From Escherichia coli 042 (GTDB lineage Bacteria > Pseudomonadota > Gammaproteobacteria > Enterobacterales > Enterobacteriaceae): a stretch of DNA of 64,000 nucleotides. Positions 57,301-60,300 of the stretch are shown in pieces (within the stretch, counting starts at the first letter, position 1; each line of letters starts with the position of its first letter). The stretch is taken from NCBI RefSeq assembly GCF_000027125.1, contig NC_017626.1; one strand, written 5' to 3'. A program made the position numbers.

Positions 57301-60300
57301 GTGCAGACCATTGCGCCGTCAGGAACGGTTTCAGTGAATTTGATATTGCCGTGTTCGTCGAGACGGATAACCAGGGTGCGTCCGTCCCCGTGAATCATTT
57401 TGTCGGGAGACGGGGCGTTATTCTGGCGCAGTTCTGCTTCCATGCGGTCGAACTCAGCAATGTATGCCTCTTTAAATGCAGCGGCTTTTTTGCCAGTGAA
57501 GCCCATCACCAGGAAAACGAAGCCGTTTTTGGTGATTTGGTACATTGGGAGTTTGCGCCCGGTTGAGTCGGTGTATTCGCTTGACACAAAATTGTGCTCA
57601 GTGAATTTTGCTGAACAGTCCAGATTGCGAATTTTATCCAACACTCGTTCGTGGCGTTTGCCAAAGAACTCGGCGATCGCAACAGACGTAGTGACAGCGC
57701 GACCATTTTCGATGGTTACGTCAGGGTGAGAAAGGGTAAGGATAGTAGCCATGATGGCAGCCTCCGCGATGAATTTGATTAACTCACCACCGAGGTTTTC
57801 CACGACCATAAGGGTGGTGAGACGTACAGGGGTGGAAATACCGGTCATCACGGAACCCGGCCAGCCTTGCGGCTGCCCTGCACGCCCCACCATAATGCGA
57901 ATGTGGCTGTGCTTAACGCATAAAAAAACCGCCTGAGCGCGGTTATGCGCCGTGAATGATTTCGGGTTTCCACGCCCGGCACCCGTTTTATGAGGTGCAG
58001 GTGCACTATAATTCCACCCGTTCTGGTTTTCAATAGCTACATTCAACATTTTCTCTACCTTTCATCACCGAAGTGAACTTTGTTGATGCGGTGCCTGGTG
58101 CCTCCAGGTGACGTTAACCAGTTAACAATTAACGTCGGATACAGAGCATTCCCGTTACGCCCGTAAAAGACCGCTTGTTTTAACTGTTCCGCGTGCGCTG
58201 AGCCGCATTCACCGCATCACAAAATTCACTTTAAAAAGGGCGGCAGAGCAGTCACGGAGTAGAACTGATACCGCCAAAAGTCACCAGAAAATTGATAACA
58301 GAGGGCGTTGCAGCGGAGTTGTCACTTAAGCGTATGGTCAACCTGACAACCCGGTGTCCTCAGCGGGGAAGGAATAACCCCGCCATACTTACCGCCGCGC
58401 CATTTCGCGGATTGCCACAACCGGAAGCGCACGGTCGAACTAAATTTAACGACACCGTACAGAGAGACCAATTTCGCCGTGCGCTTTCGCGTTATGCCCT
58501 GACTTTTCAGGGACATATCCTTTCAGTAAACTGTCAGTGCCGGATGCTCACCCGTGTCCGGCGCACGCACTCCACCTGACCCGTGGAGAACTCCTTAATT
58601 ACCAACCCTCAGGAGGGTGAAATGGATAAAAAGCAAATTGAGGCCCTGCAATCTATTATTGAAAAACAAGATGAAGCTATCAGGATTCTTTCATATCGCA
58701 CTGATATGATACTAAATATGCTTTCTGCATTAACGGCTGCGCTTGGTGGTACAAAAACAAACGTATACCGCGAAGTTGTTATTCAACAGATAGATAAATT
58801 TGAAAAAACCATACCAGGTATTAATGCTCATCTTGCAGAACAAGAGAAAGACCATGCTCTTATGGCAATTTCTTCAGTAGCTCTCCCGAAAGTTGAGTAG
58901 TTTTAATTGTTGTTTTGAAATAATCACTGCTTTCACATTTGAGTGATTTCATGGCAATCCAAATGCGGGCCACTGTGCCTGCATTTGGTTCCAGTTGCTG
59001 TAGACGTTTTGCGTCTTCCAAAAGTAAGGCGATAATGTGTTTCAGCTTCTCATCATTTGCTTGATTCTTGTTTTCAGGCGAATTCTGTCCGCCGAATAGG
59101 CGCTTCTCTTCATACAGACCTATAAAGGCACGACGCACGTTACCGGATATAGTATCGATGGTTTCCTTTTCTACAGTACTCAGGTCAAGAGTCGCCAGTT
59201 GAGAGCGAACCACATTCGCTGCCATTTCCTGGAATGGCATTGGTAAATCTTTAAATTCCATTATTAGCCTCGTTGGTTAGCTATTAACGTGGGTATGTAA
59301 CCATTCTGGCAATGCTTAATGCCGCTGCTTTTTCCAGCCTGGTGATATCCTGCTCCAGAGCGGACAGATTTTCAGCCTGCTTAGTCCTGGCTTCATTGGC
59401 CCATTTCAGATCCTGCACTGCATTAATTTTCTGGCGCATCCACTCATAAAGTTCATCATCGGTATAGTCTGGCGCGATGATGACGGGTTCTCGTTTCTGC
59501 ATACTGATTCCTCGCGGTGCTGTTTCGCTTATCAGCCGTTAGATTTTCCCGAACTGGAAAGCGCCTGTTTAAATTCACTGAAGCTGAGAGCTTCTTCGCC
59601 TTCGGCAAGACCATCGAAGTATTCTTCGTAAGCCTTTTCCATGATTGTGTCGAAATCCATATCACTCACCTGAGTTTCTTTCCAGCCAGCGACGGGCACC
59701 ATTTTCGGTTTTAAACGTTTTGCTTTTGGTATACGTCATCGCGGTGAATGTGCCGTCCTGGTTGGGAAACACGCCGTACACCAGAGATTCGTTGTTGCCA
59801 AGCTCGATAGTATCCATGCTGACCTCATTTCCCCTTAACGCCGGGTGGCGGAACTAAAACCTACAGCGCCGTGCTGTTCTTGATAGAAATATTAGTAACG
59901 CGGATATTTTAAGTCAACAGTATGGCGTATGATATTTTTGATTTGGTAACTATGTAAATGTTTTTTCAAGGGAAAAATATTAGTTATACAGCTGATTTGC
60001 AGAAGTTATGGCACAAAAAAACCGACTAAGACGTCGGTTTTTTTGTTGTGGATGGGGTAGTGAGCGGTGGCTACTGGTTACGTTTCTTTAGTGCCAGCAT
60101 GTTCTCGAAGGCTTCCTCGTAGAGCTTGTTTAGTCCACGTAGCTGGTTAAGGAGTTTGGCTTTTTCTGACGCAGGTAGAATCTCGAAGAGGTTAAGTAAC
60201 TCTGCCTGTTCTTCATTGACCAGCCTCCATCCTTTGCCTGAAAAGTTATCATCATAAGTATCTGATGATCTTACATAATTCATTAAGTCTTTAAGGTCTT

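Follow-up and report, generated by a model that had tools for sequence, protein, structure and literature searches.

What does the interval between ydfC and the small RNA (sRNA) DicF encode in prophages where it is filled with additional DNA? Earlier work regarded it as a long spacer of the dicBF operon that is not translated (PMC5069750; bioRxiv 10.1101/2023.04.14.536235). In the stretch of Escherichia coli 042 DNA analyzed here (64,000 nt of NC_017626.1; hereafter, the window), it carries two convergent open reading frames (ORFs), one of 92 amino acids (aa) on the plus strand, reading against the leftward early (early-left) operon, and one of 133 aa on the minus strand, within that operon. 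Our analysis indicates that, on balance, the plus-strand gene is probably an autonomous moron-like unit, representing one allele of a hypervariable slot set against the early-left operon of Rac- and Qin-like prophages. In many prophages, the ydfC–DicF interval contains a promoter-like element and a folded leader, followed by a separate gene that points against the operon. The features of the filled interval and its immediate borders are as follows.

58622–58900, plus strand: 92-aa cargo gene (WP_000358771; PHROG 18692), ATG at 58622, stop codon at 58898–58900
58860–59261, minus strand: 133-aa mosaic early gene (WP_000394529; PHROG 1363)
About 58608–59263, no strand: 656 bp of DNA absent from K-12 Qin, from the alignment with K-12
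58238–58289, minus strand: DicF sRNA (Rfam RF00039, 71.5 bits, E 1e-14)
59284–59817, minus strand: homologues of ydfC, ydfB and ydfA, upstream in the same leftward operon (RefSeq, identical locus; PHROGs 1744, 2061 and 751)

ORF analysis confirmed the coordinates and sizes given in the first-pass annotation, together with an AGGAGG Shine–Dalgarno sequence (SD; 58611–58616, 5 nt before the ATG) and a 41-bp tail-to-tail overlap of the two 3′ ends (58860–58900). The low GC content reported for the plus-strand gene (about 37% against roughly 50% nearby) was also reproduced, at 36.9% versus 49.7% for the whole window; the 133-aa gene has 42.5%, and the adjoining kilobase on the left side has 51.7%. 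The extra DNA relative to Qin that had been noted between the ydfC-like gene and DicF amounts to 656 bp in the alignment, which comprise exactly the SD and both genes, and homology returns on either side. In the RefSeq entry for the identical locus, both proteins are hypothetical. Among 5426 complete E. coli genomes, 123 contain the entire 851-bp stretch; one carrier of this prophage is strain NCCP15648 (NZ_CP009050, locus at 2304506–2305356).

A leader joined to exchangeable genes

Comparison across related prophages revealed swappable cargo genes behind a conserved promoter-like element and leader. The conserved unit consists of a promoter-like element, an 83-nt leader and a plus-strand ORF, and in the window its parts are the following.

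58504–58532, plus strand: inferred promoter-like element (−35 TTTTCA at 58504–58509, 17-nt spacer, −10 TAAACT at 58527–58532)
58539–58621, plus strand: conserved 83-nt leader, identical or nearly so before unrelated ORFs
58539–58562, plus strand: hairpin H1 (GCCGGA...TCCGGC)
58570–58588, plus strand: hairpin H2 (CTCCAC...GTGGAG)
58591–58595, plus strand: anti-SD sequence CTCCT, which pairs with AGGAG of the SD at 58611–58616 (third helix, H3)
58959–58988, plus strand: 12-bp GC-rich hairpin, 59 nt past the cargo stop codon and inside the coding sequence of the 133-aa protein at PNAGTVARIW (z −4.1)

The same leader, SD and ATG are fused to a set of small soluble ORFs (30–104 aa), at least 10 of them unrelated, in prophages of Escherichia (including E. 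albertii), Salmonella, Raoultella, Pluralibacter and Edwardsiella. The leader is nearly unchanged in Qin, with no gene after it, in Salmonella, with a 93-aa homologue of the 92-aa protein, and in other E. coli, with an unrelated 73-aa ORF. A search of IMG/VR with the H1 core returned at least 121 sites; among the 121 listed, 64 are empty like Qin and 53 hold one of nine or ten cargo families, which have 91, 92, 73, 69/63, 77, 70, 59/76, 64 and 36 aa and are joined at the ATG. A second scan anchored on the anti-SD and SD, and a further scan of species-representative genomes, added two cargos, namely, a 104-aa acidic protein and a 30–33-aa proline-rich peptide from the family of the 36-aa ORF. 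The 91-aa cargo is distantly related to the 92-aa protein (28% identity, pairwise E 9e-6), and the other cargos are unrelated and unannotated. Each of the five cargos that we looked up is present on approximately 1000 or more contigs.

Each cargo runs into the 3′ end of a converging early gene with an overlap of 11–120 bp, and the cargo gene always lies beside a repressor or integrase gene and against the early operon, in both lambdoid and cox-type prophages. The SD and ATG are kept wherever an ORF follows the leader and are lost in the empty sites. The leader travels with the cargo because the homology starts at H1 in three loci (L049, L007 and L134). Among deposited temperate phages, the slot is found in the O157 PPompW prophages and in phage Evi, both with the 77-aa cargo. 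Literature searches with the accessions, peptide strings, ydfC antisense transcription and lambdoid hotspots as subjects returned no description of the slot.

Several cargo loci deserve separate mention. The 30–36-aa proline-rich cargo, M[LR]INQFG..[RK]P.PD[GS]QV[PT]YRP.P.P..., ranges from Edwardsiella to Raoultella and directly follows the leader in L134, L137, L139, L141–L143, L149–L151 and L153. Its PYRPxPxPxPP stretch presumably resembles ribosome-targeting antimicrobial peptides such as oncocin and apidaecin. The 104-aa acidic cargo (charge about −8), which begins MRTNSLPVFWYKNPEHYDEF, is present in L136, L140 and L148, and its gene in L140 is flanked immediately by the repressor gene on one side and the early-left genes on the other. 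An enterobacterial-type leader with cargo also appears in a Collinsella metagenome-assembled genome (L152) and a Chryseobacterium assembly (L153), most likely through contamination or mis-binning. Furthermore, the Shiga toxin (Stx) 2a phage P13374 of O104:H4 carries H1 and a degenerate H2 (L144, 3500–3620) upstream of a gene (ORF16) for the N-terminal module that is also found in the 133-aa protein; without SD or cargo, this site resembles a decayed or empty slot in a functional Stx phage.

The leader was further analyzed with 23 distinct sequences, 14 of which came from the first scan and were thus selected on the H1 core. In this set, 95% of cells pair, and the covariation score is 0.161, compared with 0.053 for shuffled alignments (0 of 500 reach 0.161) and at most 0.039 for slid partners. 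Compensatory changes occur in two of the three helices, H2 and H3: one H2 pair is found as CG, AU, UA and GC, and one position of the anti-SD:SD helix has AU in 11 leaders and UA in another 10. H1 is invariant in the 23-leader alignment, and a compensatory GCCGGG/CCCGGC is present in one remote homologue. In the minimum-free-energy fold of the window leader (−34.1 kcal/mol, z −3.0), the SD is paired. In Rfam 15, the leader had no match at E ≤ 1 (58290–58621, both strands); over 55000–62000, the matches at E ≤ 0.01 were DicF, C4, isrK, a sub-threshold STnc100 fragment and the c4 a1b1 target, and three more (E 0.09–0.53) lie near 59837–60049. A comparison of the leader with the immunity region found no shared operators.

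Upstream of the leader, a −10-like hexamer lies 4–8 nt before H1 in nearly all of 13 unrelated contexts, and 8–10 of the 13 have an extended −10 (TGnTATCAT, TGnTATTAT, TGnTAACAT, TGnTACTAT and similar). The arrangement of TAAACT with TTTTCA belongs to the dicF-type context, which includes the window, and plus-strand transcription is predicted to start at approximately 58539, the first base of H1. At the other end, the hairpin at 58959–58988 is a candidate 3′ end or stabilizer of the plus-strand mRNA, and canonical terminators lie downstream of the homologous genes in L015 and L012. In the Salmonella copy of this repeat, most pairs are kept via G·U wobbles in the plus strand, and the conservation of PNAGTVARIW may partly reflect the RNA structure of the converging mRNA. 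A terminator-like hairpin in ydfC (59307–59324) was rejected, being no better than shuffled sequence (−8.5 kcal/mol, z −0.6).

The 92-residue protein and its relatives

To judge from its pattern of change, the 92-aa ORF is a genuine gene under purifying selection. Compared with the Salmonella allele (72% identity), the ratio of nonsynonymous to synonymous substitution rates (dN/dS) is 0.25 overall and 0.23 outside the overlap, and the differences number 20, 11 and 32 at codon positions 1, 2 and 3, respectively. Homologues with 40–45% identity (P0143–P0145) keep the length and motifs, including a C-terminal SVALP, even without an overlapping gene, and the family persists in other contexts at 25–45% identity. 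Homologues are restricted to the Enterobacteriaceae (Escherichia, Salmonella and Klebsiella), and all members are unannotated. An extended 105-aa version starting from GTG 58583 was rejected on the basis of the cargo junction at ATG 58622. A 64-aa minus-strand ORF (58322–58516) was also rejected, as it is not conserved in L003.

In the AlphaFold 2 (AF2) model, the protein consists of three helices (residues 3–41, 46–62 and 69–85); it is predicted to be soluble and is probably oligomeric. Its maximum 19-residue Kyte–Doolittle mean is 0.93, and none of the cargo proteins examined, including this one, contains a hydrophobic segment of membrane-helix length. The first-pass annotation had recognized no family for either protein of the pair, and the searches agree: neither matched Pfam (E ≤ 10 for the SieB test) or NCBIfam above noise, the PDB by sequence with profiles, or the PDB and BFVD by fold with Foldseek. 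With PADLOC-DB 2.0, the 92-aa protein had no match and the 133-aa protein had noise only (E 0.02–0.06, approximately 10–11 bits). In PHROGs, both fall in families of "unknown function" only. The 92-aa protein had no tblastn match in 50,697 deposited phage genomes, and phmmer against 1.84 billion representatives gave 15 matches, of which the short ones are enterobacterial orphans and three weak ones are proteins of 1100–2900 aa, taken as coiled-coil noise. Profile searches beyond phmmer added only the 91-aa family.

Toxin–antitoxin (TA) families in NCBIfam and Pfam matched neither protein. The only hint of a type II TA system was RelB-like (E 0.011, 15.9 bits against a cut-off of 50), and the two genes are convergent, not co-oriented. 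A type I toxin was rejected because the 92-aa protein is soluble. Similarly, a SieB homologue was rejected for lack of sequence similarity and of a transmembrane segment, in line with the first-pass remark that the protein is not SieB-like.

How the slot may work, and the alternatives

The position of the gene had been compared with that of sieB in Rac, on the opposite strand, and this comparison holds. In Rac, sieB is encoded opposite kilR and ydaF/ydaG, and its overlap with ydaF is 4 bp. The two loci thus share a slot between a kil- or DicF-type sRNA gene and ydfA/ydaF-type genes, the anti-operon strand and a 3′ overlap, and the 93-aa homologue occupies exactly this place in Salmonella prophages whose backbone is Rac-like (RecET, YdaE). 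In contrast, the proteins have no sequence or Pfam similarity, SieB has 162 aa and the cargo 92 aa with no hydrophobic segment, and the region upstream of Rac sieB has no H1 or H2.

The wider likeness is to morons, the concept introduced by Juhala and Hendrix and exemplified by HK97 gp15 and lambda bor and lom. As with lambdoid morons, the presence of the unit varies among collinear relatives (the 656-bp indel against Qin, and the empty sites), its base composition deviates (36.9% versus 49.7% GC), a promoter-like element of its own precedes it, a terminator follows some homologues, and it is placed for possible expression from a repressed prophage. Lysogen expression is expected because of these moron hallmarks and the place of the gene beside the repressor, facing the early-left operon, which is the place of sieB in Rac. 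Unlike morons, many unrelated genes here share one promoter and structured leader to which they are joined at the ATG, and the unit lies inside an operon, antisense to it and overlapping a neighboring gene. To our knowledge, no moron with a shared promoter and leader and an antisense layout within an operon has been described, and the literature search was likewise empty. The locus would thus combine a moron or prophage hotspot with cis-antisense control, and what distinguishes it is a structured leader common to so broad a range of cargos.

We propose the following mechanism, in which the transcription start, the lysogen expression and the mutual silencing are inferred from sequence. A weak sigma-70 promoter (−10 at 58527–58532) would start the mRNA at approximately 58539. 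In the leader, the two 5′ hairpins and the third helix, which pairs with the SD, would keep translation of the 92-aa ORF low and protect the 5′ end. In the lysogen, a DicA/RacR-type repressor would silence the leftward operon and leave the plus-strand gene free for expression. Once the operon is derepressed, its transcript would run antisense across the whole cargo gene and leader, and polymerase collision together with RNase III cleavage of the duplex would shut off the cargo. Conversely, the cargo transcript would be antisense to the 133-aa gene and ydfC. The overlap of the two genes would be a by-product of compaction, in which the minus-strand frame simply continues into the cassette as far as the first stop codon.

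As to function, the 92-aa protein might protect the lysogen against incoming phages by superinfection exclusion or another form of defense, as sieB does from its place in Rac; this role is proposed by analogy from position alone, and we hold it only tentatively. A more doubtful extension is that the promoter and the H1–H2–anti-SD leader constitute a dedicated, portable expression port for a fast-turning pool of small effectors. According to this speculative idea, the leader would gate the effectors to times when the early-left operon is silent, or to an incoming phage that perturbs the leader. The effectors would include helical proteins of about 90 aa, acidic proteins and the 30–36-aa proline-rich peptide, and if this were true, the slot would be an unrecognized source of single-protein exclusion or defense factors that share an RNA switch. 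In any case, the slot supplies small, defined candidates (leader plus cargo below 500 bp each) for exclusion, anti-defense and induction control, and it offers a testable RNA mechanism in which SD sequestration is combined with convergent transcription against an RNase III-processed operon. Filled slots may also alter the understanding of DicF and DicB expression in many E. coli strains.

Several observations weigh against the moron-like interpretation or parts of it. For the proposed expression, the window promoter matches the consensus at 8 of 12 positions without a TG, which is below the threshold of a consensus scan, and such a scan found no plus-strand promoter in the window; in addition, the 58959–58988 hairpin has no U-tract, and its role as a terminator is uncertain. 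The confidence of the AF2 model is just 68 (predicted local distance difference test, pLDDT). For the defense role, the blank results from PADLOC and Foldseek and the absence of membrane segments count as unfavorable, and several cargos are acidic and would equally fit anti-defense proteins of early infection. For the leader, the hairpins are palindromic and therefore also form in the minus-strand operon RNA, the empty sites retain H1 and H2, and all four single H2 mismatches are C·A, i.e., G·U in minus-strand RNA. Selection on H1 and H2 may thus act mainly through the operon transcript; because RNase III cuts the operon RNA nearby, they could, for example, stabilize the 3′ end of the upstream cleavage fragment. 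The H1 extension contains U·G and G·U pairs that are possible only in plus-strand RNA, and it seems likely that the hairpins serve the RNAs of both strands.

Other known systems resemble the locus in part. Lambda OOP RNA acts against cII and P22 sar against ant. As with these RNAs, with P22 sas and with the "excludon", convergent overlapping units here would have opposite roles and an RNase III-sensitive RNA lies nearby; unlike the short, non-coding OOP, sar and sas RNAs, the predicted antisense mRNA encodes a conserved protein. Rousset et al. reportedly described defense hotspots in P2 and P4 prophages and satellites, which share with the slot a fixed site, conserved flanks, alternative unrelated cargos and many empty sites. 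The slot differs from these hotspots in holding single proteins of 30–104 aa, of which the 92-aa one has no PADLOC match, and not multi-gene systems, and in that its conserved flank includes a shared leader RNA. The structured 5′ leader that pairs with the SD and the full coverage of the gene by a predicted antisense transcript recall type I TA systems, whereas the cargos are soluble and not hydrophobic peptides, and no dedicated antitoxin sRNA gene is evident.

Two other explanations are serious alternatives, each of them unlikely in our estimation, namely, an antisense-RNA role of the promoter and an early anti-defense role of the acidic cargos. According to the first, the promoter and leader mainly produce a cis-antisense RNA to hold the toxic early-left operon in check, acting on ydfC, on the 133-aa gene and, through interference, on DicF and DicB, and the ORFs are secondary passengers. 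More than half of the listed sites do keep the promoter-like element, H1 and H2 without an ORF, and the transcript of an empty site would be short and antisense to the 3′ end of ydfC. Moreover, the convergent arrangement is universal, and DicF and DicB, which the operon encodes, are toxic products subject to several layers of control. However, the SD and ATG are conserved with every ORF and lost only where the ORF is missing, the cargo is under protein-level purifying selection with its family kept at 25–45% identity elsewhere, and the anti-SD:SD helix covaries, which is relevant only if translation matters; additionally, the terminator-like hairpin in ydfC is weak.

In the second of these alternatives, which we consider no likelier than the first, the cargos are anti-defense or host-takeover factors made at once on infection from a repressor-independent promoter, ahead of full activity of the early-left operon, and then silenced by that operon. 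Most cargos are small, soluble and acidic (charge −8 for the 104-aa protein, isoelectric points of 4.5–5.7 for five cargos), like many anti-restriction and anti-CRISPR proteins. The region neighboring lambdoid early-left operons carries ral-type functions, and a hypervariable slot fits an arms race. Against this, a gene that faces the early operon beside a repressor or integrase gene has the classic layout of lysogen-expressed genes, homologues also occur in a non-phage island beside a restriction–modification system, and the PHROGs, PDB profile and Foldseek searches gave no similarity to known anti-defense proteins.

A third explanation, that the overlapping genes form a functional pair such as a toxin with its antidote or a sensor with its effector, is improbable. 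The 41-bp overlap and the C-terminal module (C-module) of the partner are conserved from E. coli to Salmonella, the same overlap recurs with a 45% identical homologue in L012, and SD-sequestering leaders are typical of type I toxin mRNAs. The minus-strand gene itself is an ordinary mosaic early gene with exchangeable C-modules, of a kind present in many lambdoid phages. Its product consists of an N-module (approximately residues 1–55), a disordered linker and a C-module, and its PHROG matches split at residues 63/69. The N-module (MEFKDLP...) is common to many lambdoid and Stx-phage proteins with alternative C-modules. In the AF2 model, the N-terminal helical hairpin has a pLDDT of approximately 82, the C-terminal part is poorly defined, and residues 107–133 fall below 50. 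The C-module has a dN/dS of 0.20, and the final 13 codons, which are the antisense of the conserved C-terminus of the cargo, are modeled as disordered.

The partner varies or is missing among the homologues. For relatives of the 92-aa protein in Salmonella, it is a stand-alone 71-aa copy of the C-module, whereas in L012, a cox/C/int prophage, it is an unrelated 214-aa helix–turn–helix protein. Homologues in L015 and L013 have no overlapping partner, and in L007 the homologue is truncated at its 3′ end and the partner is absent. One homologue without an overlapping partner adjoins the gene for an S24-type, cI-type repressor, and another adjoins an integrase gene in the non-phage island with the restriction–modification system. 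Conversely, a single partner C-module is found with two unrelated cargos. The disorder predicted for the overlapping tail of the partner, the absence of membrane segments from the cargos and the lack of TA family matches also disfavor a functional pair. An obligate two-gene module was rejected because the partners vary or are absent, and the tail overlap is read as compaction, not coupling. Consequently, the joint module proposed in the first-pass annotation is not supported, although its extra AT-rich DNA, its sieB-like position and the lack of a described family do. Its suggestion of an antisense-regulated pair is upheld insofar as the anatomy is antisense to the operon; however, only the plus-strand gene is antisense, and the partners vary.

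Finally, the idea that the plus-strand frame is open merely by chance, within an untranslated operon spacer, for which the description of the region as a long untranslated region (PMC5069750) and the lack of a tblastn match in deposited phage genomes could be cited, is effectively refuted by the dN/dS of 0.23 and the conserved protein family (to 25–45% identity, and already in PHROG 18692), and the codon-position periodicity and the strong, correctly spaced SD also speak against it.

The surrounding prophage

Two further inverted repeats lie in and near the operon.

58422–58489, minus strand: inverted repeat CGGAAGCGCACGG / CCGTGCGCTTTCG within the operon transcript, with arms at 58422–58434 and 58477–58489
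60013–60046, no strand: perfect 14-bp inverted repeat (ACAAAAAAACCGAC / GTCGGTTTTTTTGT) flanked by A and T runs

In Qin, RNase III cuts the operon RNA approximately 137 nt upstream of DicF, giving a 190-nt species (bioRxiv 10.1101/2023.04.14.536235). By homology, RNase III probably cuts at the repeat at 58422–58489 to release this 190-nt DicF precursor, and the position of the repeat fits; the repeat is kept in Qin, in Rac upstream of kilS, in Salmonella and in cox-type prophages. The repeat at 60013–60046 forms a bidirectional terminator, placed downstream of the repressor gene and with the region where the leftward operon starts on its other side, and is the last possible stop for a plus-strand transcript.

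The prophage adjoins ompW (52140–52778; NCBIfam equivalog, 402 bits), and a 376-aa ORF at 52824–53954 is its probable integrase gene. Because it is integrated beside ompW, it is a relative of the PPompW prophages of Shiga toxin-producing E. coli, in which the slot holds another cargo (77 aa).

Between DicF and an intact dicB (56996–57184), a P1/Gifsy-type immunity module is inserted on the minus strand, in the region 57195–58226. It includes isrK (57922–57998), C4 antisense RNA (57810–57897) with the a1b1 target (57959–58011), and a Rha-family gene (ORF 57195–58049, with the Rha domain falling within the translated segment 57740–57195). Just upstream of the module lie a truncated 5′ fragment of dicB (approximately 58084–58167) and the sub-threshold STnc100 match (58079–58226), which suggest that dicB was the site of insertion of the module or of a recombination that brought it in.

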